The notes beneath the pieces are model-generated. The model did not search any database. It saw only the letters and a program-made list of their open reading frames with translations, and was not told where the DNA came from. Shown here piece after piece: positions 1,271-56,213 of a stretch of 64,000 nucleotides of DNA (within the stretch, counting starts at the first letter, position 1; the number at the start of each line of letters is the position of its first letter). Source of the DNA: Candidatus Dasytiphilus stammeri (GTDB lineage Bacteria; Pseudomonadota; Gammaproteobacteria; Enterobacterales; Enterobacteriaceae); contig CP145871.1 of assembly GCA_041941785.1 (NCBI GenBank), positions 198,328-262,327 on the forward strand, written 5' to 3'. The position numbers were made by a program, and so were the translations under genes.

Positions 1271-2275
1271 TTAAAATAAATTATTTATTGACCACCGGGG
1301 ATACACATTAATTGTTAACTCTTTATATTGTTCACCATTTTTTAATCTTAGAAATCCTACATAAGCTATCATAGCGCCATTATCGGTACATAATTCAGGA
1401 CGAGCATAAAGTATATTTCTAGAATCAATTAACTTATTAAAACTTAATCTCAACTTCCTATTTGAACTCACACCCCCTACAATTACTAATTGATTGATTT
1501 TAGTGAACTCTAGTGCTCTTTTACTTTTAATTAATAATGAATCTATAACAGCATCTTCAAAAGCACGAGCTATATCTGCTTGTGTTTGCATATCATTATT
1601 TTCTTTTTGAACTAAATTAGCAGTATAAGTTTTTAATCCTGAAAAACTAAAATCTAGGCCAGGACGATTAATCAAAGGACGAGGAAGGGTAAAACGATCC
1701 TTTCTACCCTGATGGGCTAAATGAGATAATTTAGAGCCTCCAGGATATTCTAATCCCAATAAGTGAGCAATTTTATCAAAGGCTTCTCCTACTGCATCAT
1801 CAATTGTTTGTCCTAATAATTGATAGCTGCCTAATTTAATAACATTAACTAATAATGTATGGCTTCCGGAAATTAGTAATGATACAAAAGGAAAAATAGG
1901 ATTATTATTGTCAATAAAAGGCGTAAATATATGTCCTTCAAGATGATTTATGGGTAAGGCGGGAATGTCTAAAGCAAAAGCTAATGAACGTCCAAAACTT
2001 GCACCTACTAATAAAGATCCGGATAAACCAGGTCCGACAGTGTAAGCAATACCATTAATATCTCGTATACTTAATGTGGTCTCTTTTAAGAGAGACTTAA
2101 TTAATGGAACAATTTTTTTAATATGATTCCTAGCCGCTAATTCAGGAACTACACCGCCATAATTTGCATGCAGTAACATTTGGCTATAAACTTTATTAAT
2201 TAATAAACCGTATTTTTCATCATAAATGGATAATCCAGTTTCATCACAGGATGTTTCAATTCCTAGGACACGCAC
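1271..2275 (-). CDS. tsaD: tRNA N6-adenosine threonylcarbamoyltransferase TsaD (YgjD/Gcp)
   Basis: [20 protein letters not shown]...[16 protein letters not shown] matches the E. coli TsaD N-terminus almost residue for residue. It is divergent from rpsU as in E. coli. Confidence 0.95.
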
Positions 2276-2373
2276 AATAATATTGTTACTCCACGAAGCT
2301 TAACTTTACACTTTACATTTCAGGATTTTTTAAGTATAATCATGATTATAGTTCTATGATTTAGGTAGTTAAT

Positions 2374-2586
2374 ATGCCCATTATAATAGTTCGCGATAAT
2401 GAACCATTCGATGTATCGCTTAGACGTTTCAAACGTTCATGCGAAAAAGCCGGAATCTTGGCCGAAGTCCGACGAAGAGAGTTTTATGAAAAACCTACTA
2501 CTCAACGAAAACGTGAAAAAGCATCTGCCATTAAACGACTGGCTAAGAAATTATCCCGGCAACAATCACGACGTATACATAAGTAA
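2374..2586 (+). CDS. rpsU: 30S ribosomal protein S21
   Basis: A 70-aa basic protein, [42 protein letters not shown]. It is the first gene of the rpsU-dnaG-rpoD operon. Confidence 0.95.
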
Positions 2587-2667
2587 AATTAAAATTATAA
2601 TTATTTATATAGAGTTTATCAATAAAAATTAAATCCTAATATTTTTATGAGAGAAGATTAATTCTGA

Positions 2668-4439
2668 ATGAAGAGTCAGTCAATAGGGAGACATATTCCA
2701 TATACATTCATTAAAAATTTAATAACTCATATAGATATAGTAGAACTAATCAAATCTAATTTACCTTTAAAAAAAATAGGAAAAAATTATCGTTCCTGTT
2801 GTCCTTTTCACAATGATCAACATCCTTCTTTCACAGTGAGTAGAGAAAAACAATTATTTTATTGTTTTGGATGTGGCAAGCATGGAAATGTCATTGATTT
2901 TATAATGAATTGGCAAAATTTAAATTTTGTGGAAAGCATTGAAGAATTATCCGCTATGTATGGTTTTAAAATTCCATACGAATCTAGTAATGTTTTATCT
3001 ATTCTTATAATTCAGCGTAGAGAATATTTATTTAACATAATGAAAATAGTATGTAATTTATATCAAAAATATTTATGGGATAAAACTATAAATGCCTTAC
3101 AGGCTAGAGAATATTTAGCTCATAGAGGAATAAATTCTAAAATAATTAAAGAATTTGCTTTAGGTTTTGCTCCCGGTAGAGGAAGTACAGTGAAAGAATA
3201 TTTTGACTATTATTATCCTCAGGATCGAAAGTTATTAAAAGAAATAGGCATATTAGGATTTTATCAGGAAGAAACAAATGATTTTTTTAAAAATCGTATC
3301 ATGTTTCCAATTCGGGATAAAAGAGGTAGAGTTATGGGTTTTGGAGGACGAATTCTGAACTCATCCCATCCTAAGTATTTAAATTCCCCTACTACAAATA
3401 TTTTTAATAAAGGACATCAACTATATGGTCTCTATGAACTACATAAAAAATGTACTAGACCTTTTAAAGTGTTAGTGGTAGAAGGTTATATGGATGTTAT
3501 TTCTTTAGTACAGAATGGAATTGATTATACGGTTTCTTCCTTAGGGACAAGTACATCAATAGATCATATTCAACTTTTATTCCGTAATACTGATAATGTT
3601 ATTTATTGTTATGATGGAGATGATGCGGGTCGTCAAGCAGCTTGGAAAGTACTTAATAAATCCTTAATATATATGTTAGACGGAAGACAATTAAGTTTTA
3701 TGTTTTTACCTGAAGGAGAAGATCCGGATAGTTTAATCCGGAAAGAAGGAAAAATTCTTTTTGAAAAAAGAATATTATGTGCTCTATCTCTATCCGAATT
3801 TATGTTAAAAACTTTCTTAAAACAGGTAGATATTTCTAGCCCTGAAGGAAAAGCTAAACTTCTTACTCTAATAAGACCCTTAATTAATAAGATTCCTAGT
3901 AAAATACTACGTCTTTCTATACGATATACATTATTTCAAAAATTAGGTCTATTAGATTATAGAATATTAAAATTATTATCTCTTCAGAGAGTACCAGTTA
4001 TGAACTCTCTTCGTAGCTTCTATGTCAAAAAAAAAGAAGTAAGATGCGAGTGTTACTCAGTTTATTAGTGCAAAATCCTCATTTTTCATTATTAGTACCA
4101 GAGTTAACCGGGTTAAAGCAGTTAAAACTGAAGGGCTGGAATATTTTTTTAGAATTAGTAGTAAAATGTAAAGCTTATCCGAAAATAAAGACAGGATATT
4201 TACTAGAACAATATAGAGATACAAATTTAATAAAAACTCTTGAAATATTAGCACATTGGAACCACATGATTGATGATGCTCATTTAGAAAAAACGTTTCA
4301 GGATTTACTTACTAGTATATATGAATTAGTTTTAGAACAACGTCAAGAAAGACTTATTGCTTTAGAACGAACTCAAGGGTTGAGTATTGAAGACAAACAT
4401 GAGTTATGGTATTTAAACCAAGCATTAGCAAAAAAATAA
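2668..4439 (+). CDS. dnaG: DNA primase DnaG, reading frame interrupted by a -1 frameshift in an A9 tract (4027-4035)
   Basis: ORF 2668-4068 carries the zinc finger (CCPFHNDQHPSF...CFGCGKHG) and TOPRIM (EGYMDVISL...DGDDAGRQAA). ORF 4044-4439 carries the DnaB-binding C-terminus (LLVQNP...HELWYLNQALAKK). Adding one A to the tract joins the frames. Confidence 0.85.
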
Positions 4440-4611
4440 ATATTAAAAATTTCAGAAGTTTATTGTTTGTTATAGGGAGGCTAAGATGAGATATTATTTT
4501 CTGTAGGAACAAAGGTAAAAATATTTTTTTTATAAAAAAAAGTGATCATTTATCAGTAATATCTTTTTTTTATAGTCACATTTCACTTAACTTTATTATG
4601 GGTATCGTCTT

Positions 4612-6432
4612 ATGGATCAAAATTCGCAGTCACAGATAAAGATTCTTGTGAATCTCGGGAGAGAACAAGGATATTTAACATATGCTGAAGTCAATGACTA
4701 TCTTCTGCAGGAGATTGTAAATGTAGATCAGGTTATAGATGCAGTTAAAATAATCAATGATATGGGTATTCCGGTTATGGAAGAAACCCCTGATGCAGAT
4801 GATCAAATACTGAATTCGGGTACATCAAGGCAAGAAGATGCAGAGGATAACCACCCTACCGACTTAATAATGTCGGGTGGAGGGATGGAAGGTCGTACTA
4901 CCGATCCAGTTCGCATGTATATGCGAGAAATGGGGAATGTAGAATTATTAACACGGCAAGGAGAAGTAGATCTCGCTAAACGTATTGAAGATGGTCTAAA
5001 TCAAGTACAATCTTCAGTAGCTGACTACCCTGGAGCTAGTTCATACATTCTTGACCAATACCATGATCTGAATAGTAGTGGTATTCGTCTTAGTGATTTA
5101 ATTATAGGTTTTGGCAATCCGAAAGCTGGTGAAATAGTAAAATACCATGCAAATATTAGGATTACTACGGATGACTTATCCTCTGAAGAACAAGGGAAAG
5201 AAGATTCCGATAATGAAAATCATATTGACCCCGTAGTGGCATGTAAAAAATTTACCTCCTTAAGGAATCAGTATGAAAAAACTTGCGCTATTATTAATAG
5301 TAAGGGGCGAGATCATCATGATACTGTTCAAGAACTAAAATATCTTTCCCAAATATTTAGGCAATTTAGGTTAATGCCTAAAGTATTTAATAAATTAGTA
5401 GAAAATATGCGCTCCATGATGGAACGATTACGGTTCCAAGAACGGAAAATTATGAAACTTTGTGTAGATCAATGTCATATGCCTAAGAAAATTTTTATTT
5501 CCTTATTTACTGGTAATGAAAGTAATGAAAATTGGTTAAAAAATGCATTGTTAAGAAAGGATCCATGGTCAAAAAATTTACATAAAGTAGTTGGTGAAAT
5601 AGTAAAAAGTCTACGAATTTTAGTAACAATTGAAGAAGAAACAGGTTTAAGTATTGAAAAGATAAAAGAGATCAATCGGAGAATGACTATTGGTGAAGCA
5701 AAAGCCGGAAGAGCAAAGAAAGAAATGATAGAAGCTAATTTGCGTCTAGTAATTTCAATAGCTAAAAAATATACCAATAGAGGACTCCAATTTTTAGATC
5801 TTATTCAGGAAGGCAATATTGGTTTAATGAAAGCAGTAGATAAATTTGAGTATCGACGGGGATATAAATTTTCAACTTATGCTACATGGTGGATTCGACA
5901 AGCTATAACCAGATCTATAGCAGATCAAGCTCGTACTATACGGATTCCAGTACATATGATTGAGACTATCAATAAATTAAATAGAATGTCGCGGAAGATT
6001 TTACAGGAAATAGGTCGAGACCCTACATCGGAAGAATTATCCGATCGAATGTTAATTTCAGAAGATAAAATTCGTAAGGTTTTAAAAATTGCAAAAGAAC
6101 CTATTTCAATGGAAACACCGATTGGTGATGAGCATGATTCTCATTTAGGAGATTTTATTGAAGATACTAATATTAAAATGCCGTTGGAGAGTGCTACATC
6201 GGACAGCTTACGAGATGCTACTCATTACATTTTAGGGGATTTAACATTCCGAGAAGCTAAAGTATTACGGATGCGTTTTGGAATTGATATGAATACAGAA
6301 CATACTTTAGAAGAAGTAGGTAAACAGTTTGATGTTACACGAGAACGTATTCGACAAATAGAGGCAAAAGCATTACGTAAATTGCGTCATCCCAGTAGGG
6401 CAGATGTTCTACGAAGTTTTCTGGATGATTAA
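4612..6432 (+). CDS. rpoD: RNA polymerase sigma-70 factor RpoD
   Basis: 606 aa with conserved regions 2 to 4 ([58 protein letters not shown]; [30 protein letters not shown]). Confidence 0.97.
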
Positions 6433-8480: not shown

Positions 8481-11342
8481 ATGAAGAACAAATATTGTCC
8501 CTCTGATATAGAAGGTCCTATATATGAAAAATGGGAAAAACTAGATTGTTTTAAAAAACAGGATACAGATAATCAGGAAAGTTTTTGCATTATGTTACCT
8601 CCTCCAAATATTACTGGTCACTTACATATGGGACATGCTTTTCAACACTCTCTTATAGATACTCTTATTCGTTATCATCGAATGCAAGGAAAAAATACTT
8701 TATGGCAAGTAGGTACTGACCATGCCGGAATTGCTACCCAAATTATTATAGAACAAAATATATTATTAGCCACGGGTAAAAATATAAAAGATTTTAAACG
8801 AAGAGAATTAATAGAGCAGGTTTTGCCATGGAAAAATTCGTTAAATCAACAAATCTTTCAGCAGATGCGGCGATTAGGATGTTCCGCCGATTGGTCCCGA
8901 TCACGTTTTACGATGGATGAAGGTTTTACTAGAGCCGTTAACGAAGGTTTTGTGAAATTATATAAAGATGGTTTAATTTATCGGGGTAAGCGATTAGTTA
9001 ACTGGGATCCAATATTAGAAACAGCAATTTCGGATCTTGAAGTAGAACACATAAAATCTCAAGGATTTATATGGTATATACGATATCCATTAGCAGATGG
9101 AGTGAAAACTTCGGAAGAAAAAGAGTATATGGTAATAGCTACTACAAGACCAGAAACCTTATTAGGTGATACCGGAATAGTAATTAATCCTCTGGATGAA
9201 AGATATAACAAATTAATAGGAAAATTTGTTCTTTTACCTTTTTGTCATCGGCGTCTTCCAATAGTTGCTGATAAAACTATTGATATATCTAAGGGTACGG
9301 GATGTATGAAACTTACTCCGGCTCATGACTTTAAAGATTATGAAATAGCACAAAAATATAAATTACCACTGATAAATATTTTCAATTTAGATGCTACAAT
9401 TCGTACATCTGCTCAAGTATTTAATTATCAAGGTGCCATGAATAATACTTTAAGTACACAAATACCCAAAGAATTTCATGGTTTATCCCGTAAAGAGGCG
9501 AGAAAAAAAATTATCTCCTGTCTGAAAAATATAGGTCTATTGGAAAAAAAAGAATCATATGAATTGGTTCTTCCTTCGGGAGAAAAAAGTAGAGCAATAA
9601 TTGAACCTATGTTAACTGATCAATGGTATCTACGGACTAGAGATCTGGCTCAAACAGCTATAGAGGCTGTAAGAAAAAAAAAAATTCATTTTATTCCCCA
9701 GCAATATGAAAATATGTATTTTTCCTGGATGTCAAAGATTCAGGATTGGTGTTTATCACGTCAGTTATGGTGGGGACATCGAATACCGGCTTGGTATGAT
9801 GAAACAGGTAAAATTTACGTAGGTAGAAATGAACAAGAAGTACGAAGAGCAAATAATCTTCATTCTAAGATCTTCTTAACACAAGATGAGGATGTTTTAG
9901 ATACCTGGTTTTCATCTGGGTTATGGACTTTTGGTACCTTAGGATGGCCCGAAAAAACTGATTTCTTACGACTGTATCATCCGACTAGTGTTCTAGTGAG
10001 TGGTTTCGATATTATTTTTTTTTGGATAGCTCGCATGATCATGCTTTCTATGTATTTTATTAAAGATAAAAATGGCGAGGGTCAGATTCCATTTAAAACA
10101 GTTTATATTACAGGTTTAATTAAGGATGAACAAGGCAATAAAATGTCTAAATCTAAAGGTAATGTAATTGATCCTCTAGATATAATAGATGGAATATCAT
10201 TAGAAGAACTATTAACCAAACGTACTGATCACATGCTGCAACCAAAAATGGCTAATAATATTAAACTACGGACGAAAAAACAATTTCCACAGGGCATCAA
10301 ATCTCATGGTGCCGATGCGCTACGTTTTACTTTAACTTCCTTATCTTGTCCTTCTCGCAATATTAATTTTGATCTAAAACGGTTAGAAGGATATCGAAAT
10401 TTTTGTAATAAATTATGGAATGCAGGTAGATTTGTTCTGCAGAATACGGAACAATCTATTTTCAGATCTGATTTTCATCAAAACAAAAGAACATTAGCAG
10501 ATCGGTGGATTTCAGCGGAATTTAATCGCACAGTTAAAATATATCGTAATGCTCTTGATAATTATCGTTTAGATTTAGCATCTAACGTTCTTTATGAATT
10601 TACTTGGAATAAATTTTGTGATTGGTATTTAGAAATCACAAAAATAGTATTAAAAAGTAATTGTAAATCAAGAAAATGTATATCACGTTATACTTTAATA
10701 AAAGTATTTGAATCATTATTACGCCTAGCTCATCCTATTATACCTTTTATTACTGAATATATTTGGTTACGGCTTAATAAATTAACAAAAAATAATGAAT
10801 CTATTATGATACAGGCAATTCCATTGTATCAATCTTCAGAAGAAGATAATTCTTCCATAAATGATATGGAATTAATAAAAGAAGTTATCGTATATATACG
10901 TAATATTCGTACTCAAATGAATATTAGCGTTACTCATCAAATTGATTTATTGATACGCCTCTGTAATAGCACTAGTGTAAATTATAATATTATCCACGAA
11001 AATTTTGAATTATTACAAAGTCTTGCAAAAGTCAAAAACATGACTATAGTCAGTAATAATGATTATCTACCGATGATTCGAACAACCAAATTAATTGCAG
11101 ACATGGAAATTCATATTCCATTATCGGAGGTGATATCTCAGAAGATGGAATATAAGAGATTGGATAACCTACTTACTAAATTAGTAGAAAGAATCCAGGT
11201 TCTGGAAATACGTTTATCCGATAAAAATTTTTTATCTTATGCTCCAAAAGAAGTAGTATTAAAAACGGTGGAACAGCTCAGAATATTAAGAGATAAAAAG
11301 AAAATACTATTAATTAAACAGAGTATGTTTAAAACTCCTTGA
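8481..11342 (+). CDS. valS: Valine--tRNA ligase
   Basis: 953 aa with class I motifs PPPNITGHLHMGH (HIGH) and KMSKSKGN (KMSKS), plus a C-terminal coiled coil. Confidence 0.97.
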   Translation: MKNKYCPSDIEGPIYEKWEKLDCFKKQDTDNQESFCIMLPPPNITGHLHMGHAFQHSLIDTLIRYHRMQGKNTLWQVGTDHAGIATQIIIEQNILLATGKNIKDFKRRELIEQVLPWKNSLNQQIFQQMRRLGCSADWSRSRFTMDEGFTRAVNEGFVKLYKDGLIYRGKRLVNWDPILETAISDLEVEHIKSQGFIWYIRYPLADGVKTSEEKEYMVIATTRPETLLGDTGIVINPLDERYNKLIGKFVLLPFCHRRLPIVADKTIDISKGTGCMKLTPAHDFKDYEIAQKYKLPLINIFNLDATIRTSAQVFNYQGAMNNTLSTQIPKEFHGLSRKEARKKIISCLKNIGLLEKKESYELVLPSGEKSRAIIEPMLTDQWYLRTRDLAQTAIEAVRKKKIHFIPQQYENMYFSWMSKIQDWCLSRQLWWGHRIPAWYDETGKIYVGRNEQEVRRANNLHSKIFLTQDEDVLDTWFSSGLWTFGTLGWPEKTDFLRLYHPTSVLVSGFDIIFFWIARMIMLSMYFIKDKNGEGQIPFKTVYITGLIKDEQGNKMSKSKGNVIDPLDIIDGISLEELLTKRTDHMLQPKMANNIKLRTKKQFPQGIKSHGADALRFTLTSLSCPSRNINFDLKRLEGYRNFCNKLWNAGRFVLQNTEQSIFRSDFHQNKRTLADRWISAEFNRTVKIYRNALDNYRLDLASNVLYEFTWNKFCDWYLEITKIVLKSNCKSRKCISRYTLIKVFESLLRLAHPIIPFITEYIWLRLNKLTKNNESIMIQAIPLYQSSEEDNSSINDMELIKEVIVYIRNIRTQMNISVTHQIDLLIRLCNSTSVNYNIIHENFELLQSLAKVKNMTIVSNNDYLPMIRTTKLIADMEIHIPLSEVISQKMEYKRLDNLLTKLVERIQVLEIRLSDKNFLSYAPKEVVLKTVEQLRILRDKKKILLIKQSMFKTP

Positions 11343-15421: not shown

Positions 15422-16147
15422 ATGTTTACATCGATAATAGTTCCAAGTACATGGATATCATTACTCACTTTAATGAGCGTAGAAATTATCCTAGGTCTTG
15501 ACAATATTATTTTAATATCTTTCCAAATATCTCATCTTCCTATTAATCAACAAAATACTGCTTTAATGTTTGGGTTAGGAGTATCAATGGTAATACGTAT
15601 TATCTTATTAAGTATTGCTAGTTGGATGCTGAAATTTACTAACCCAATATTTACTCTCTTCTTGCATAATTTTTCATTTCGGGAAGTAATTTTTTTACTT
15701 GGAGGCATATTTTTATTATGGAAATCTTTTAAAGAACTACATCATACAATTTTATTAAATTTTAATACCTCCAGCTTTTTGGCTAGAAAAAAAAATTTTT
15801 TTTCATTTGGAAAAGTAGTTGGAGAGATAATTGTGTTAGATATTCTTTTTAGCATAGATTCAGTACTGACTGCAGTCAGTATCTCTACCAATCAGACAGT
15901 AATGTTTATTGCCTTAATTTTTTCAGCAATTATCCTGTTCTTTTTTTCTAGAAAAATAGCTAAATTTCTGCACTATAACATTTTTATCAAGATATTAACC
16001 TTATCCTTTATAGGTTTATTAGGAATAGTTCTTATGCTAGAAGGAATTTTCATACATATTCCTAGAGGATATCTATATGCATCTTTATGTTTTGCTCTAT
16101 TAGTAGAAGGTTTAAATTTTTTATATAGAAAAAATAATGTTCACTAA
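15422..16147 (+). CDS. ygdQ: TerC-family integral membrane protein (YgdQ-like)
   Basis: 241 aa and polytopic. LLTLMSVEIILGLDNIILIS...LLGGIFLLWKSFKELH...HIPRGYLYASLCFALLVEGLNFLYRKNN parallels E. coli YgdQ. It is adjacent to mutH as in E. coli. Confidence 0.7.
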   Translation: MFTSIIVPSTWISLLTLMSVEIILGLDNIILISFQISHLPINQQNTALMFGLGVSMVIRIILLSIASWMLKFTNPIFTLFLHNFSFREVIFLLGGIFLLWKSFKELHHTILLNFNTSSFLARKKNFFSFGKVVGEIIVLDILFSIDSVLTAVSISTNQTVMFIALIFSAIILFFFSRKIAKFLHYNIFIKILTLSFIGLLGIVLMLEGIFIHIPRGYLYASLCFALLVEGLNFLYRKNNVH

Positions 16148-16402: not shown

Positions 16403-17371
16403 TTAATACTCTACTACTATAGAAATAGTATCGGAATAGTTCCCAGCAGTTACATTTGTCTGTTTATTATTAACCGATACTTGATATGTAATTAATTGAG
16501 GACTACCTAAACCTGTAAAACCTAATTTACTATTTTTATTCCAGATAATATTCGTGTCAGGATGATAAATATTATATTGGATATAATGAGCTAGTCCATC
16601 ATTCATTTGTCTCCATCCTCCATGAAAAAAATTACCATCCGTAAACCAAACATTGAAATGTTCTTTTTTAGTGCAGCTTACAGTGATATGAGCAGTTAAT
16701 GGGGTAACTTTATCTAGTGAAGTGGTAGAACCCAAATCAATATCATTGATTGTATTTATTAAACATTCTTTATTTACTGACCCATGTACTTTGACAGTAG
16801 TAAATCCTTTTCCTTTCCAATTAGAAAAACATAGAAATAATGTACCTACTCGACAAATAGAATATTCCCATTTCATTTGAATCTCGTCTTCATAAAGTCC
16901 CGAAGCAACGTTACTACTGGGCTGAGTTTTTATATAGAGAGGAATTTCACTATTATTTGAGGAAAATATTAATGACAGTAAATTTAATTTATCGAAGTCT
17001 ATCTCTTGTCCTACTTTATAAGCATACTGATAATTTTTATCTGGATATATTAGATATGGAATATCTTCTTCTGTTGAAGGATCTTGATTTTTCAGCTTCA
17101 TGTTATTTAAAGTGGAAAGAATCTGCGCTCTAATAGTATTATGAGTTAAAAAGGTAGCATTAAATCCTGAACAAATCATACCTGACTTTCCGGAAGACTG
17201 GATAGATCCGTGAAGTAGACTAAAGGAATTAGTCGATCCTAAACTTACATCGCCATGAGAAAAAGTACAATCTCCTCTGGTTACAGGAAGATAGAAAAGA
17301 GCAATAATAATTGGAAAAATTTTTATATAATTCAAGGGATAATTAAAATTATTATTTTCCTTTACTTGCAT
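16403..17371 (-). CDS. Two-domain SCPU (spore coat protein U-like) pilus tip subunit / putative adhesin (CsuE-like)
   Basis: 322 aa, with a signal-like N-terminus (IKIFPIIIALFYLPVTRG/DC) and several Cys pairs. The C-terminus ends in the SCPU signature AGNYSDTISIVVEY. It is the last gene of the operon and overlaps the usher stop by 10 nt. Confidence 0.7.
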   Translation of the reverse strand: MQVKENNNFNYPLNYIKIFPIIIALFYLPVTRGDCTFSHGDVSLGSTNSFSLLHGSIQSSGKSGMICSGFNATFLTHNTIRAQILSTLNNMKLKNQDPSTEEDIPYLIYPDKNYQYAYKVGQEIDFDKLNLLSLIFSSNNSEIPLYIKTQPSSNVASGLYEDEIQMKWEYSICRVGTLFLCFSNWKGKGFTTVKVHGSVNKECLINTINDIDLGSTTSLDKVTPLTAHITVSCTKKEHFNVWFTDGNFFHGGWRQMNDGLAHYIQYNIYHPDTNIIWNKNSKLGFTGLGSPQLITYQVSVNNKQTNVTAGNYSDTISIVVEY

Positions 17372-19932
17372 AGTAGTTGTAATCCTCGAGTTGATATATC
17401 TTCGGATGGTTGATTAACTACTACTTTACAAGTAGTATTATTGTCAGATCTAGTAATAAGAAGTAGATAATGCTTGTTCTTATTGATATCTTTAATGAAG
17501 ACTTCTCCTTCTAAGCCTGACCAAGTAATCTGGGAAGTACCTATTATCCTCACTAGACTACCTGGAGGTAAAAAGTGACCTTCTTGATCAATCACTGAAA
17601 AAAAAGCGGATTGAGGACTAGATAGATCAAAATTTACTATATAACCACTCCGGTCCTTAAGGATAAATTTTCTAATTGTTGAAGGAATCTCAATTCCCGC
17701 TGAAATATTTTTAGGATCAATGGATATGGTAGCAGGATACCATGATGGTACAGATGAAACTAATAAATATCCCTTACTATCAGTTTTTCCAATAAAGCTG
17801 TTTTCATAAAAAATAGGGATATTTTGATATCCATTAGTTGATATTAGTACGAATCCATCATTAATAGGTGAGGAAAAATTAATATATTTTCCTATAGACA
17901 CTAAGGCACCACTTAATTGCAACCATAGGTTGGAATAATTATTCACTTCATCTAAACCTACTTGAGTAGCAAAATATTGATTTTTCCAAATAATATTAGC
18001 TTGATGTAAGGTATCATCAGTATTTTTTTTAGAAAAAATAACATTCCATCCTATCCCTTCATAATATGGAATACTTCTATTCCATGATTGACTTATGAAG
18101 GAATTATGCTCTTCATCTACGTCAGATACAAAAGATGTATTTCCAAAACTATTTAAAGGTATACTTAACATTAAGTGTGCTTTATACCCTGATTTTATAC
18201 CCGTATATTTATTTATTGAAGTCCATAAATTAATATCCCTTCCTAACGAAGTACTATATGAAATATTTAATTCTTTTAATCTTTTTTTATTTAGGTCTTG
18301 GTTTTCCAGAAAATTTAAACTCACATTGCTAGACTGACTCAAATTCAAGGAACCATTAATTTGAGTAAAATGGTGAACTAAGTCGTTTGATGACTGACTC
18401 GCATAATTTAATAACTCACTATAATTTCCAATTCGGTAGTTATATTGAGCATTGAAATTTAAGAATGTATTCTGGTATGTATATCCTAAGTTTATCTGTT
18501 GTCCTGTATAGTGCCAATTACTGTCATTCCATTTATGAGAATTCATATTAAATTTAAAGAGAGATCTAATATTATTAGTGTCTACAGCAGGAACAGAATA
18601 CACTGGAGTTCTGTTTTCTTTGGTGGCACTACTGATACTCCATGAAATATTTACTATTCCTAAAAGGAAACATTTTATATCACCTCCTAGTCCTATATTA
18701 AAAAAATTTTTAGTACTTTCTACTATTGTATTAACTGTTATCCATGGTGCTAACCCATATCTTATAAATCCCTTTAAAGACATATCCGAATCATAATCAA
18801 AAGATTTTTGTCCGTAATGTCGTCGTAAAGATCCTAATGATAGACTAAAATCAGTGCTACCTACATTAAGGATATTTCTATCTATATAAAAAGGCACTTT
18901 TATTCGTTTAGAGCGACCTAATAAATCGGATGTTAGGATAGTAGCCATATTATAACCATTGAAATATCCTAAATTATTTATCAACTGAAATTTGCCTGCA
19001 CTAATTGGTCTAGATATTATTTTATCATTATTTATATATACATCTAATATACTAGGCATAGTAGCATATCCACTAATGTTAGGTAAGGAATAGGTAATTG
19101 TCTCAGGATGTATATTGAATTGTCGGGATACTTTAATTCCCACCATTCGCACTGGAGAATAGCCAGTAAAAACATCAGTAGTATAATCACCTATTATATA
19201 GTGCAACATATGTTGTTCGCTATTCATACTCCATTGAGTTTCATAACGTATGTAGGATGATTTTTTTATATTTTGATTTAATAAACTGTTAATTCGTAAT
19301 ATTCCCGTATGTGAGAAGACACCTATGCGATTAAATAATCTAATCTCTGACCATAATGAAGATTTAACTTTTTTATTCTTTTTAAGAAAGGTATTTAAAT
19401 ACCAGTCATAGTTTAATATTACTCCGAAAGAACTTTTACCTGCTTCTTTGTTTAGAAGGGGAGAGTTGATCGGCCTAATTTTTTTTTGTGGCCACCAAGA
19501 ATAAGGTACATCTATAAAAAATCTTTGCATATTTGGATCATATTTAGTAATTAAATTACTTACTAAATCTAGAGCTATCTCATTGTGAGAAAAATTGTGT
19601 ACTTTTCCGAAGATTATCTTATCAAAATTAAATCCTATTTGTTTCAATGAGTCTATTGACATATAAAAATGTCTATTTTTATATTTGACGGGAAATATTT
19701 TGTGCGTAACATTGCCATTAATCACTAGTTCTAAATATAACTGACTACTGCTATTAGCTAAAATATTTTGATTAATTTTACCTTCAGCACCAGGGATAAA
19801 AAAGAGGAGTAAAAATAAATAACACTCAATTATTCGGAAAATTCCACTTTTAGTGGCGTCGTAATATATGGACAAATTATTTGTTTTGAACCAAATTAAA
19901 AAAGGGAATAGTTTTAATTTCTGGTCGCTCAT
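17362..19932 (-). CDS. Outer-membrane fimbrial usher (CsuD/FimD/PapC family)
   Basis: 856 aa, the right size and position (after the chaperone) for an usher, rich in aromatic-terminated beta-strand repeats. The N-terminal region has LYLELVINGNV...SLKQIGF. The start is ambiguous: ATG 19932 overlaps the chaperone by 56 nt, whereas TTG 19875 lies 1 nt after the chaperone stop and is followed by a signal-like segment (FRIIECYLFLLLFFIPGAEG). Confidence 0.85.
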   Translation of the reverse strand: MSDQKLKLFPFLIWFKTNNLSIYYDATKSGIFRIIECYLFLLLFFIPGAEGKINQNILANSSSQLYLELVINGNVTHKIFPVKYKNRHFYMSIDSLKQIGFNFDKIIFGKVHNFSHNEIALDLVSNLITKYDPNMQRFFIDVPYSWWPQKKIRPINSPLLNKEAGKSSFGVILNYDWYLNTFLKKNKKVKSSLWSEIRLFNRIGVFSHTGILRINSLLNQNIKKSSYIRYETQWSMNSEQHMLHYIIGDYTTDVFTGYSPVRMVGIKVSRQFNIHPETITYSLPNISGYATMPSILDVYINNDKIISRPISAGKFQLINNLGYFNGYNMATILTSDLLGRSKRIKVPFYIDRNILNVGSTDFSLSLGSLRRHYGQKSFDYDSDMSLKGFIRYGLAPWITVNTIVESTKNFFNIGLGGDIKCFLLGIVNISWSISSATKENRTPVYSVPAVDTNNIRSLFKFNMNSHKWNDSNWHYTGQQINLGYTYQNTFLNFNAQYNYRIGNYSELLNYASQSSNDLVHHFTQINGSLNLSQSSNVSLNFLENQDLNKKRLKELNISYSTSLGRDINLWTSINKYTGIKSGYKAHLMLSIPLNSFGNTSFVSDVDEEHNSFISQSWNRSIPYYEGIGWNVIFSKKNTDDTLHQANIIWKNQYFATQVGLDEVNNYSNLWLQLSGALVSIGKYINFSSPINDGFVLISTNGYQNIPIFYENSFIGKTDSKGYLLVSSVPSWYPATISIDPKNISAGIEIPSTIRKFILKDRSGYIVNFDLSSPQSAFFSVIDQEGHFLPPGSLVRIIGTSQITWSGLEGEVFIKDINKNKHYLLLITRSDNNTTCKVVVNQPSEDISTRGLQLLCK

Positions 19933-20725
19933 TGATCTGAGCTGTTAATATTTTTCTTCCTCTTAACGAGGCATCAATTGGAAAAATTATTTCATTACCT
20001 GGTAGGACATAACCTAGTAATCCATCACTGACCAAATATTTATTTTTATTATCTTCTAAGTATACTTCACTTAGTTTAGCATGTATGGTTCCTTCATTAC
20101 GAATATGTAAGTAATTTTTATCTTTTTCCTTAAGAAGGAAATAATGTAATTTGGGAGTAGAAATAATACAATTCTTATTGAGATGATGTAAAATATCTGA
20201 TGGAGATTTTATGTTAGGACCATACACAAATAATGGGATAGAATAACGCATTTTGAATTTTAATTCGATGTTCTTTTTTGGAACATTATCGTTATAATTA
20301 TTTACGCGAGGAATTTCATCAATGATTATACGATATGCTTTTTCCTCATATTTAGAAGGAGATCTTATCTTAACTAAACGTAGGAGTTGTTTTTGTCCCG
20401 AGGCAATTAATACTATTGGTGGACTAACTACTATATCATTTTGTTTTTCCAGCAGGGATGTATTCTGTTTTTGTTTCCAGCTAAAAATGCGTATTTGTAA
20501 TAAAATATCATTTTTATCCAAATTTTCTAACCATAACAAGGTTGTATTATCATTACATTCAATCATGGGATCAATTGGCCAAATATTTAATGAGGCAGCT
20601 GATACTACTGGAATAGTTCCTATTATTATAGATACAACTATCAACCATCCGCTTAATCTTATTTTGTAATCCATACAATTAGTTTTTCTCCCTATCTTCT
20701 GCTCTTTATTATCTATAGAGATCAT
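19877..20725 (-). CDS. Periplasmic pilus chaperone (PapD-like, CsuC-type)
   Basis: 282 aa with an N-terminal signal/anchor (LSGWLIVVSIIIGTIPVVSA). Typical chaperone strands are LNIWPIDPMI...LLWLENLDKNDILLQIRIFSW and SPPIVLIASGQKQLLRL. Confidence 0.85.
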   Translation of the reverse strand: MISIDNKEQKIGRKTNCMDYKIRLSGWLIVVSIIIGTIPVVSAASLNIWPIDPMIECNDNTTLLWLENLDKNDILLQIRIFSWKQKQNTSLLEKQNDIVVSPPIVLIASGQKQLLRLVKIRSPSKYEEKAYRIIIDEIPRVNNYNDNVPKKNIELKFKMRYSIPLFVYGPNIKSPSDILHHLNKNCIISTPKLHYFLLKEKDKNYLHIRNEGTIHAKLSEVYLEDNKNKYLVSDGLLGYVLPGNEIIFPIDASLRGRKILTAQINERPEIKTIPFFNLVQNK

Positions 20726-20903
20726 TAGGATTTATCTCTAATGTATATACATAAATTTCTTTTGACACTGTGTACTTTTTTTATTATTTAGCCACCTTTT
20801 TTTTAATAAAACTATTAAGATAGTTATCTTAGAGGAAATATTCTTCAATTAAATATAAATTTCTTTCTAAAAAGCAACATTTTTTGTTCTTTTTAAGATT
20901 TAT

Positions 20904-21410
20904 TTACCAGCTAAGGGTAATAGTCAACATATCTAGATATGTGCCCGCACTAGGAACCACTTGTTTGGGTACACGACCGTAAATTATTAAGGGCATATTT
21001 TCTCCATTTGCTTTGTTACTTAATATTTCAGTGCTATTCCATAGTAAGGAATATGTTGCATCTTTATACAGATCATATTTTATAAATTCATTTTTTTCTC
21101 CTTTCATTCTTCTTTGTGTGCCTTCCGGTTGTAATCCATTACTTAGAGTTAGATGATAAGATACTCCTTTTGTACAATTAACACCCAATGTCACATTTAC
21201 TGACTTTGAGTTAGTAGTCGTATCTATTACATTATTAATATTTGGATGTTCTCCGAAATCTAAGCTCCCAAAGTTCAGAGCTTGTCCTCCAGTAATTTCA
21301 CAACCATTACCTATAATCATATGGACTCCAATATTTCCTGATATTTGTCCGGTTGCATAAATGGAAGTGGAGAAAAATAAGCTAGTTATTAACAATAATA
21401 TTTTGTTCAT
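20904..21410 (-). CDS. Major pilin subunit, SCPU (spore coat protein U) domain, CsuA/B-like
   Basis: 168 aa with signal peptide MNKILLLITSLFFSTSIYA/TG. It has two conserved Cys (GNGCEI, GVNCTKG), LNFGSLDFG, and the C-terminal SCPU motif AGTYLDMLTITLSW. It is the first gene of the operon. Confidence 0.8.
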   Translation of the reverse strand: MNKILLLITSLFFSTSIYATGQISGNIGVHMIIGNGCEITGGQALNFGSLDFGEHPNINNVIDTTTNSKSVNVTLGVNCTKGVSYHLTLSNGLQPEGTQRRMKGEKNEFIKYDLYKDATYSLLWNSTEILSNKANGENMPLIIYGRVPKQVVPSAGTYLDMLTITLSW

Positions 21411-21492
21411 AATTTTTCTTCCATATTTAGAAAAAGTAAATATTGAATATTATTCTATTATAACTCTCTTTTTTCAGAGAAAAAAAAATTAT

Positions 21493-47397: not shown

Positions 47398-48519
47398 TTA
47401 AGAAGTGTTTATTACTGGTAATCCATTACGAACAAAAACAGGATTAGTCACTTCTACAGGAATTATTCTTTGATATTTTAGATTATGATGAGTAAGGTAT
47501 ACTAGAGCTGACTTTCCAATGGTAGATGGTACCCTCGCTAGAGCTATGCTATGACCTAAGGTAGGAGAATAACTACCACTTGTAATTATCCCTATTTGTT
47601 TCTGGCCACTTTTATCCATAAAACTAACCCGAAAATTTTTTCTTAACATGCCTTTTTCTTTCATTAATAATCCTACTAATTTCTTTTTTTTATTATGATC
47701 ATATTTAATTCTTAAAGCATTTCTTCCTATAAAATTTCGGGAATATTTCCAACTAATTGTTCGTTCCATATTGGCTTCTAAAGGAGAAATACTTTCATTC
47801 ATCTCATTTCCATAGAGATTCATACCAGCTTCAATCCGTAAGGTATCTCGTGCTCCTAATCCGACCGGTGTAATTCCTGACGCTATTAATTGATGCCATA
47901 AGTATACCGCTTTTTCTTGCGGAAGAGCAATTTCATAACCTTTTTCTCCGGTATAACCTGTATAAGCAATAAATAATTCATCAATTTGTATGTTCGAAAA
48001 TGGTAATAACTTTTCCACAGTATTTAGTTGTTTTTCACTTAAAATGCTATGCATTTTTTTTTGTGCATTTGGTCCTTGTATAGATAGAAAAGCTAAATCG
48101 TTTCTTATTTTAAGTGTGACATTAAAATTCATAGCATGATAACTAATCCATGCTAAATCTTTACTGCAATTTACGGCATTAACTACTAATCTAAAATAGC
48201 TTTCGCCTATAAAATAGACCATTAAATCGTCAATGACTCCTCCATCTTGATTTAACATTCCAGTATATAAAGATTTTCCGGGATGTAATAATTTAGCTAC
48301 GTCATTAGCTAATAGATACCGTAAAAATTTTCGAGTATTAGAACCCGATAAATCTAAAATTAACATATGAGATATATCAAATATACCTGCATCATTCCGG
48401 ACTGCTTTATGTTCGGTTATTTGAGAACCATAATGAAGAGGCATAATCCAATTATTAAAATGAATCATTGTTGCGCCACATTTTTTGTGCTGATCGAATA
48501 AAATAGTACGCTGTTGCAT
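47398..48519 (-). CDS. gcvT: Aminomethyltransferase, glycine cleavage T protein
   Basis: 373 aa, [29 protein letters not shown]...[13 protein letters not shown]. The gene order is gcvT-H-P. Confidence 0.95.
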
Positions 48520-51898: not shown

Positions 51899-53089
51899 TT
51901 ATACTCCTAGAGTATTATTACTAATATAATGTTGAGCACGATCTTCTAGCATCCTAATAGCTGGTAATTTTTTGCCTTCTACAAATGACAAAAAAGCACC
52001 TCCTCCAGTAGAAATATAAGAAATATATTTTTCTACTCCAAATAATTCAATTGCCGCTTGAGTATCTCCTCCTCCCGCAATAGAATAAGCATGGCTTTCT
52101 GTAATAGCCTCTGCTATCATTCTAGTGCCCGTGCTAAAATTCGGAAATTCAAAAACACCGACTGGTCCATTCCAAAGAATAGTTTTAGCTTTTTTTATAA
52201 TGCTAGTCATAATTTGAGTAGTTTTTTCCCCCCAGTCCATAATTTCTTCATCAGAGTCTATTTCCGCAACACTTTTTGATAGTGCTGGTGAGAGTTCAGA
52301 AAATTCAGATCCTACCCGAACATCTATGGGGATAGGTATGTAATAGCTATCTCGTAAGATTTTAGCAGCTTCTACAAAGTCTGGTTCATATAAAGATTCT
52401 CCTACTCGATTCTCAATAGCAACAAAAGTATTAGCAATTCCACCTCCTACAATTACTTTATCCGAAACTTGAGCTAGATAATTTAATATATCAAATTTTG
52501 TAGAAATTTTTGATCCTCCTATTATAGCAACCATAGGTCTCTGCGGTTGTTTTACTGCTTTACTTAAAGCTTCTAATTCAAATTCTAACAGGGGACCCGC
52601 ACAAGCAATAGGTGCAAATTTAATTATACCATATGTTGAAGCATCTTTCCGATGAGCAGATCCAAAAGCATCCATTACAAAAATATCGCATAGTGATGCA
52701 TATTTTTTAGCTAATAATTCATCATTTTTCTTCTCTCCTTTATTGAATCTAACATTTTCTAGAATTACTACCTCATTTTGAGCTAGATCTAATCCTTCTA
52801 AATAATTTTTTTCTAACCGAATGGAACAAGAAATTTTTTTTTTCAATACTTCCACAATAGGCAAAAGAGAAAATGATTTCTGATATTTTCCTTCTACTGG
52901 TCGTCCTAAATGAGAGGTCACCATAATTCTAGCCCCTTTTTTTAGGGCTATTTTAATAGTGGGAATAAATGCGTTTATCCGGGCTTCTGATGTAACTATA
53001 CCCTCTTTATTAAGAGGAACATTTAAATCTGCCCGAATCAAAACTCTTTTTCCTGATAGATTCAAATGTGTCATTTTCATTATAGACAT
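51899..53089 (-). CDS. pgk: Phosphoglycerate kinase
   Basis: [25 protein letters not shown]...[19 protein letters not shown]. Confidence 0.97.
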
Positions 53090-55541: not shown

Positions 55542-56213
55542 ATGATGTCTTCGCGAAGAATTAAAAGTTTTGTACGACGTTCGCGTACCAAAAAAAAATA
55601 TCAACAAGCTATAGCTGATTATTGGACAGATATGGGAATAACCTATAAAAATCAGCTTGGGGTAGCTAATTTTTTTCTTAAGGAACAACAATTATTATTA
55701 GATATTGGATTTGGAATGGGCACGGCATTGGTAACACAAGCTTTAACTAACCCGAGAACTAACTTTCTTGGAGTTGAAGTTTATTTGCCCGGAATAGGAT
55801 CATGTCTAAAATTAGCACATAAATATAGAGTTATGAATTTACGGATTATATGTTATGATGTAATTGATGTACTTGAACGGATGATTCCAGATAACTCTCT
55901 CTTTAGAGTACAGCTTTTTTTTCCCGATCCCTGGAAAAAAAGACGACACTATAAAAGACGTTTACTCCAAAAAGAGTTTGCTGAATTAGTTTTACGCAAG
56001 TTAATTCCACAAGGAATTTTTCATATTGCTACTGATTTTGAATCTTATGCTGATCAAATCATTACCATAATGAATAACATTTCGGGATATAATAATTTAT
56101 CGGTTAATCAAGATTATGTTTCACGACCTTTTCCTAGACCTTTCACTAAATTTGAAATTAGATCCCAGCGTTTAGGTTATATAATAAGAGATATAATGTA
56201 TGAAAAAAATTAA
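55542..56213 (+). CDS. trmB: tRNA (guanine46-N7)-methyltransferase
   Basis: LLDIGFGMG...FLGVEV...FPDPWKKRRHYKRR, 223 aa. Confidence 0.9.
   Translation: MMSSRRIKSFVRRSRTKKKYQQAIADYWTDMGITYKNQLGVANFFLKEQQLLLDIGFGMGTALVTQALTNPRTNFLGVEVYLPGIGSCLKLAHKYRVMNLRIICYDVIDVLERMIPDNSLFRVQLFFPDPWKKRRHYKRRLLQKEFAELVLRKLIPQGIFHIATDFESYADQIITIMNNISGYNNLSVNQDYVSRPFPRPFTKFEIRSQRLGYIIRDIMYEKN

Follow-up and report, generated by a model that had tools for sequence, protein, structure and literature searches.

In 'Candidatus Dasytiphilus stammeri' from Listrus beetles, the primase gene dnaG is interrupted by a real, genome-encoded frameshift. The gene was analysed in a 64,000-nucleotide stretch of contig CP145871.1 (GCA_041941785.1, positions 198,328 to 262,327 of the forward strand), hereafter called the window, whose source is a Listrus-clade strain of the symbiont. 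A run of nine A residues separates the reading frame of the zinc-binding and catalytic domains from that of the helicase-binding domain. Under every model of decoding, the default product is predicted to be a primase of 466 amino acids (aa) that lacks the C-terminal domain. Full-length DnaG is probably produced in addition, through transcriptional slippage on the A-run, with or without ribosomal slippage, a reading that we draw from sequence comparison.

Frame 1 is open from ATG 2668 to the TAG at 4066-4068 and encodes 466 aa. A TAG at 4014-4016 precedes the open part of frame 3, which begins at 4017 and contains an open reading frame (ORF) of 131 aa from ATG 4044 to 4439. Positions 4027-4035 form a run of exactly nine A residues, which reads GTC AAAAAAAAA GAAGTAAGATG with its flanks. 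Because the two frames overlap across 4017-4068, this is the sole stretch where they can be joined, either by a -1 shift or by an mRNA that is longer by one A, and the A9 is the sole slippery sequence within it. Reading the tract as A10 gives a single protein of 590 aa (...FYVKKKRSKMRVLLSLLVQNP...). The parts of the gene are as follows.

2668-4035, plus strand: dnaG part 1 in frame 1, residues 1-456 (zinc-binding domain, TOPRIM RNA-polymerase domain, linker and the KKK codons of the tract)
4027-4035, plus strand: A9 homopolymer, the frameshift (putative recoding) site
4036-4068, plus strand: out-of-frame tail of the default product, EVRCECYSVY and then TAG at 4066-4068
4035-4439, plus strand: dnaG part 2 in frame 3, R457-S-K-M460 and then the C-terminal domain binding the helicase and the protein that binds single-stranded DNA (SSB), with the stop

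The original prediction, made from the letters of the window and a list of its ORFs, had described dnaG as split by a -1 frame change in this A9, and the ORF layout and a six-frame scan of the window confirmed it. The '-1' is correct as the shift that a ribosome would need; the DNA itself is one A short of the in-frame length. The lesion amounts to a single indel in an uninterrupted A/T run of about 9 nt or more, and the gene is otherwise in frame. In the six-frame scan of the 64-kb window, dnaG was the sole homopolymer-linked frame switch between two long open frames. The window contains 12 A/T runs of at least 9 nt, seven of which lie in frame within long ORFs; an A9 alone is thus not unusual here. 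A T9/A9 run at 21480-21488 was considered as another split gene and rejected, as it is intergenic between hflC and a pilin gene.

The two halves carry the domains that had been assigned to them. The N-terminal ORF matched the dnaG family TIGR01391 over residues 10-424 with 428.3 bits, passing the curated cutoff of 283.6; PF01807, PF08275 and PF13155 are precomputed for protein P0001, and the CCPFH...CFGCG (CHC2 zinc ribbon), EGYMD, DGDDAG and EGEDPD motifs are readable in the frame 1 translation. The C-terminal ORF matched PF08278 (DnaG_DnaB_bind) over profile positions 1-124 of 124 with 100.6 bits (cutoff 29.1), so that a DnaB/SSB-binding domain is present, though encoded in the -1 frame. The joined 590-aa protein is collinear with Pantoea DnaG (53% identity over 582 residues) with the junction undisturbed. 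The predicted collinearity with Escherichia coli DnaG was likewise borne out: the tract encodes K454-K456, R457 is the first codon of the new frame, and pairwise alignment places K456/R457 opposite E. coli K447/R448 and M460 opposite M451. The E. coli RNA-polymerase-domain constructs 1dd9 and 1eqn align to residues 116-435, and the helicase-binding domain structures 1t3w and 2haj (E. coli 434-581) match residues 455-590 of the joined protein with their residues 13-148. These alignments place the break within the linker between the two domains, where the functional residues of the C-terminal domain begin. The two Dasytiphilus ORFs correspond almost exactly to E. coli DnaG-N (p49, 1-433) and DnaG-C (p16, 434-581); p49 and p16, however, are laboratory proteolytic products of one polypeptide and are not separately encoded. 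In E. coli DnaG, K447, R452 and K518 surround the SSB-binding pocket, and the K447A substitution abolishes SSB binding (PMC3632105). A fragment beginning at M460 would be missing the lysine equivalent to K447, and translation seems instead to continue across the junction.

A sequencing or assembly error, with A10 as the true state of the genome, was one of three explanations offered by the original prediction. We compared the window with metagenome-assembled genomes of Ca. Dasytiphilus stammeri from Listrus beetles (Wierz et al. 2024, PMC11191362), which were assembled from Illumina shotgun reads per host species, Nanopore reads with Illumina polishing being used for Listrus sp. 02 alone (PMC11191362). 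The same frame state was found in six distinct genomes from different hosts. Two Logan re-assemblies, SRR27811461 and SRR27811460, match the window at 100% identity over 3.0-3.5 kb, A9 included, and further Logan contigs match the relatives L002 and L004 exactly. The seven other A/T runs of 9-11 nt that are in frame indicate that the assemblies are not systematically miscounting homopolymers. Homopolymers are error-prone, and one assembly counts against the break: Logan contig L013 (SRR27829359, Listrus sp. 02 symbiont) has A7 at about 238-244, and is in frame there, where the finished genome of the same strain (L003, 5357-5365) has A9. However, L013 also has T6 instead of T7 at about 355-360, some 100 nt downstream of the tract, which breaks the C-terminal domain. 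These are its sole differences from the finished genome in 2 kb, and since both are homopolymer contractions they look like long-read errors. The discordance is probably due to homopolymer compression in what was presumably a Nanopore run. A sequencing or assembly error is therefore effectively excluded, and we consider it extremely improbable.

The same frame switch at the same tract was found in the four relatives L001-L004 by gapless alignment. DnaG is 90-92% identical to the window in L001-L003 and 72% identical in L004; nucleotide identity falls to 79%, with dS (synonymous divergence) at about 0.5. A sixth distinct genome, L012 (independent Logan assembly SRR27811466, 92.7% identical to the window), is likewise split. 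The tract is A9 in L002, L003 and L012 and A10 in L001 and L004; in the latter two the base before the run was substituted to A, and the frame is still broken. All six sampled Listrus-clade genomes have thus retained both frameshift and tract. The tail that the default product gains out of frame is not conserved, being 10, 3 or 7 residues long among the relatives.

The outgroups comprised three Dasytastes-clade genomes and one Dasytes-clade genome, that of the Psilothrix symbiont, with the Danacea clade and Dasytes sensu stricto left outside the comparison. A contig scan with peptide patterns from one protein returned Listrus-clade loci only, a profile search built on Dasytiphilus DnaG was dominated by Pantoea and Erwinia hits, and a C-domain profile search gave short proteins only; the Psilothrix symbiont DnaG was identified through an exhaustive search of cluster representatives followed by cluster look-up. 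DnaG is intact in these four genomes, and none has a tract at the site.

Dasytastes clade (P0006-P0008): DnaG of 579-582 aa, site TTC AAA CAT ACA ACT ATG (...FKHTTM...)
Psilothrix viridicoerulea symbiont, Dasytes clade (P0254, CP145869.1): DnaG of 580 aa, site ATA AAA TTA AAA TAT ACT CCA ATT (...IKLKYTPI...)

Because neither outgroup has the tract, tract and frameshift are best placed as a derived state, arising on the stem of the Listrus-clade symbionts and retained since. The split of dnaG in Dasytiphilus appears to be previously unreported: the words frameshift, pseudogene and dnaG are all missing from the main text of PMC11191362, and its supplementary gene table gives dnaG as present in all 20 genomes.

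Both halves had been described as undegraded, and the substitution pattern agrees with this. The ratio of nonsynonymous to synonymous divergence (omega, dN/dS), calculated by the Nei-Gojobori method with 300 bootstrap replicates, was 0.24-0.44 before the tract and 0.13-0.47 after it. For the part after the tract compared with L004, omega was 0.21 (dN 0.119, dS 0.567; bootstrap 95% interval 0.11-0.37, maximum 0.53), similar to that of the intact neighbours in the same comparison (rpoD 0.29, tsaD 0.25, pepA 0.36), as expected under purifying selection downstream of the frameshift. No stop or indel was found in the 134 downstream codons in five genomes, and the terminal ...LAKK, which holds the E. 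coli DnaB-contact lysines K580/K581, is invariant. Taken together, these observations indicate translation of the downstream part in frame 3, under constraint of the kind seen in an ordinary gene. They also bear on whether dnaG, or its C-terminal domain, has become dispensable and is decaying as a pseudogene. Genome erosion is ongoing in Dasytiphilus symbionts (PMC11191362), and the Listrus-clade dnaG ORFs returned no NCBI protein entries, all being from Logan, presumably because NCBI treats them as pseudogenes. However, a decaying sequence would not be expected to show an omega of 0.13-0.47 or an invariant functional C-terminal motif, and with about 8% stops per random codon, 134 codons would stay open with a probability of roughly 1e-5 per genome (an estimate), whereas they are open in five lineages at dS of up to 0.57. 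We therefore regard decay as very improbable.

The tract itself is also conserved. Among 13 sites with an A/T run of at least 8 nt in some genome (about 8.4 kb aligned), only the dnaG tract and an A8 in cca were retained in all five genomes. In L004 the linker just upstream is among the most diverged parts of the gene, and the tract and the following GAAGTAA[G/A]ATG are invariant. This matches the 'frozen slippery tract' pattern of Blochmannia (Wernegreen et al. 2010), as that pattern is cited in PMC3017870 and PMC4389277.

Primase is indispensable, and its coupling to the DnaB helicase needs the C-terminal domain. We propose that the ancestor of the Listrus-clade symbionts gained a poly(A) tract in the linker before this domain, so that an ancestral ...K-R-T-T-M... 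would have become ...K-K-K-R-S-K-M..., presumably as an in-frame A10 from which one A was then lost. Standard decoding would yield the 466-aa primase, with the zinc-binding and catalytic domains and without the helicase/SSB-binding domain, and full-length 590-aa DnaG would arise in the smaller share of decoding events, those in which the frame is recovered within the tract. The likeliest route would be that RNA polymerase re-copies one A, so that A9 becomes A10 in the transcript; ribosomes slipping or sliding by -1 on A-AAA-AAA may contribute and would give an identical protein, with VKKKRSKM at the junction. Since primase is needed in small amounts per cell, a low yield of recoding is plausible and could be sufficient. 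Slippage on the poly(A) run was another of the three original explanations, and it is the one best supported here, by the conservation of tract and frameshift, the purifying selection downstream and the preserved K447/R448 equivalents. The peptide KKKRSKMR, which had been suggested as a marker of the junction for mass spectrometry, is unsuitable, because trypsin would destroy it.

Published work makes this route plausible. Runs of 9 A/T suffice for realignment of bacterial RNA polymerase, i.e., transcriptional slippage, and in Buchnera and Blochmannia 12-50% of the mRNAs copied from frameshifted genes carry the correction (PMC5009743). The most frequent transcription error at A/T runs is the insertion of one nucleotide, which becomes exponentially more common as the run lengthens (PMC5574713), so that its direction matches the change needed at the dnaG A9.

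Alternatively, the mRNA could keep A9 and the ribosomes themselves could supply most of the correction, shifting by -1 or sliding on GUC-AAA-AAA-AAA with tRNA-Lys and producing the same VKKKRSKM junction. A zero-frame heptamer A-AAA-AAA of the X-XXY-YYZ type is indeed present within GUC-AAA-AAA-AAA-GAA, and E. coli ribosomes slide and lose the frame on iterated AAA codons (PMC4363877). For chloroplast atpB, ribosomal frameshifting is reported to correct a homopolymer frameshift (PMC8254509). However, the heptamer is not the efficient in-frame A-AAA-AAG form, no significant stimulatory fold was predicted downstream (4036-4115, z = -1.06) or upstream (3960-4026, z = -0.56), and no GGAG-like Shine-Dalgarno element occurs in 4005-4026. 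Ribosomal recoding as the main route is thus unlikely in our estimate, although the two routes are not mutually exclusive.

Several points weigh against slippage as the source of full-length DnaG, whichever the route. For this organism, we infer the production of that protein from its gene. Traverse and Ochman saw no frame-restoring transcription error in Buchnera LSR1 (PMC5574713). The comparison of tract conservation is a small sample of 13 sites, and because the tract encodes the K447 equivalent, part of its conservation could be ordinary protein constraint. Finally, a conserved ATG (4044) lies 8 nt after the tract, so that the cell might solve the problem with two polypeptides.

Separate production of the C-terminal domain from ATG 4044 was the third original explanation. 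Under it, dnaG would be a true split gene, in which a 466-aa N-terminal protein and a 131-aa C-terminal protein, possibly made by termination-reinitiation, act together or separately without any recoding. All six genomes retain ATG 4044, the leader is A-rich and unstructured and could permit initiation independent of a Shine-Dalgarno sequence, selection on the C-terminal part would be explained equally well, and NCBI annotates the split dnaG of Buchnera from Astegopteryx as two proteins. The stop of the N-terminal frame lies 0-22 nt after the ATG, although this geometry varies among the genomes (+22, +13 or an ATGA overlap). The overlap is found in L003 at 5366-5376 (GAAGTAAAATGAGAG), where the N-frame stop and the internal ATG share ATGA, a classic translational-coupling arrangement. 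However, the Met is ancestral (E. coli M451), so that conservation of the ATG is uninformative, and the retention of a run of at least 9 A would be unexplained. The C-terminal fragment would also lack the K447 equivalent needed for SSB binding. Pairing of ATG 4044 with the anti-Shine-Dalgarno sequence is weak, at -1.3 kcal/mol, whereas 45 gene starts in the window have a median of -3.1; 24% of the starts pair more weakly and 76% more strongly, and the pairing is no better than that of 45% of all ATGs. In this comparison, the starts are those of the longest ORFs, a canonical anti-Shine-Dalgarno sequence is assumed and many genuine starts also pair poorly, so that the pairing says little either way. 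Neither the pairing nor the fragment itself thus lends positive support to separate production. Tougu and Marians reportedly found that E. coli p49 and p16 supplied in trans do not restore DnaB-coupled priming. We therefore consider a true split gene doubtful, and quite unlikely on balance.

Production of full-length DnaG by slippage would also place the dnaG split within a known phenomenon, that of homopolymer frameshifts rescued by slippage, and by this analogy the mechanism is not new. The genes that are frameshifted in poly(A) or poly(T) runs and rescued by transcriptional slippage in Blochmannia and Buchnera (Tamas et al. 2008; Wernegreen et al. 2010) likewise occur in AT-rich, vertically inherited insect endosymbionts; they likewise have a single indel in an A run of 9-11 nt, are intact apart from it and subject to purifying selection, and keep frameshift and tract across diverged host lineages. 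In Blochmannia vafer, a homopolymer frameshift was reported in dnaG itself, as in dnaX and pth, restricted to that one genome (Williams and Wernegreen 2010, PMC3017870), whereas in Dasytiphilus, a different lineage with a beetle host, it is fixed in the six sampled Listrus-clade genomes. What this case adds is its clade-wide presence in the six sampled genomes, its position at the DnaG-N/DnaG-C boundary and a convergent case in Buchnera.

In two Buchnera aphidicola genomes of about 412 kb (L006, CP134988.1; L007, CP134985.1, from Astegopteryx bambusae), dnaG is split at 2478-2499 by a run of A22, as assembled, into an N-terminal ORF of 437 aa annotated as 'DNA primase' and a C-terminal ORF of 139 aa annotated as 'hypothetical protein'. 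About 13% of positions in the 5.4-kb locus differ between the two genomes, and the break is the same in both. The Buchnera break lies in the same linker, immediately before ...ILIGLLVQNP, is likewise at a poly(A) run and would be corrected in the same way, by a -1 shift or an added A; the lineage is independent, and the run is A22 compared with A9/A10 in Dasytiphilus, so that much more promiscuous slippage would be expected there. When the 150 top-ranking representatives of clusters at 50% identity were taken for the N-terminal ORF, three were truncated (the protein of the window, that of Buchnera and one unrelated GC-rich protein), indicating that such dnaG splits are rare overall. ORFs of about 131 aa for the DnaG C-domain in free-living Enterobacterales were rejected as natural splits, since they lie on very short contigs or contain garbled stretches of the kind that assembly errors produce. 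A separate protein, P0005 (675 aa, NCBI, on an 8.8-kb contig), resembles E. coli DnaG and has two segments that are duplicated internally; an assembly artefact is the probable cause, and the protein is unrelated to the split.

The out-of-frame state could itself be under selection, either as programmed recoding that fixes the ratio of the primase without its C-terminal domain to full-length DnaG or as a dosage attenuator, and could have evolved convergently. A +1 reversion in such a tract should be mutationally easy, yet none of the six lineages has reverted; the two run lengthenings that leave the frame broken and the Buchnera parallel also point this way. We regard selection for the frameshift as a speculative and improbable reading; we know of no function in vivo for a primase without the C-terminal domain. 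If true, the dnaG frameshift would be an inverted analogue of dnaX tau/gamma and would have arisen at the same linker in at least two endosymbiont lineages, the Listrus-clade Dasytiphilus (A9/A10) and the Buchnera of Astegopteryx (A22), with Blochmannia vafer as a possible third. dnaX is likewise a replisome gene, and an A-rich site at one of its domain boundaries gives a full-length form and a form without C-terminal protein-interaction domains, by -1 ribosomal frameshifting at A-AAA-AAG in E. coli and by transcriptional slippage at A9 in Thermus thermophilus (PMC5009743). However, in dnaX the zero frame encodes the full-length form and recoding the short one, whereas in Dasytiphilus dnaG recoding would be needed for the essential long form, and no stimulatory elements were found around the dnaG tract.

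The locus has the rpsU-dnaG-rpoD order of Enterobacterales, as expected for a bacterial dnaG, and the frameshift may act as an expression attenuator within this operon. The neighbouring genes are as follows.

2374-2586, plus strand: rpsU (ribosomal protein S21), from the ORF list, with PF01165 on the orthologous neighbour in related loci
4612-6432, plus strand: rpoD (sigma-70), from the ORF list, with Sigma70 Pfam domains on the orthologous neighbours

For rpsU, omega was 0.02-0.08 in comparison with the relatives. A promoter and terminator scan of 2200-4700 gave background level, and an Rfam scan of the window at the gathering threshold found three tRNAs and nothing else. The original prediction had also stated that no second primase gene is visible in the window; this is true, and says little about the rest of the genome. 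The other in-frame A/T runs, reported as 9-11 nt, are listed below. If RNA polymerase slips at the dnaG A9, these seven genes should yield a comparable fraction of out-of-frame transcripts.

9674-9684: A11, in valS
10015-10023: in-frame A/T run
15787-15803: in-frame A/T run
19479-19487: in-frame A/T run
48054-48062: in-frame A/T run
52834-52843: T10
55590-55598: in-frame A/T run

Elsewhere in the window, an archaic (Csu-type) chaperone-usher pilus cluster at 16403-21410 on the minus strand is complete and looks intact in this symbiont of about 0.5 Mb. In a symbiont that is confined to the bacteriome and has an eroded genome, surface pili would not be expected.

20904-21410, minus strand: SCPU subunit
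19877-20725, minus strand: PapD-like chaperone
17362-19932, minus strand: usher
16403-17371, minus strand: protein with two SCPU domains

All six sampled genomes of the Listrus clade appear to depend on error-prone decoding for a working component of the replisome, which makes dnaG a natural test case of how far slippage rescue can carry an essential gene. Automated annotation will label such a dnaG as a pseudogene or as two proteins, and reconstructions of reduced genomes should count such loci as functional. The position of the break at the DnaG-N/DnaG-C boundary, together with the Buchnera parallel, leads to the testable idea that two primase isoforms, or a reduced dosage of primase, may be useful or harmless in tiny genomes.

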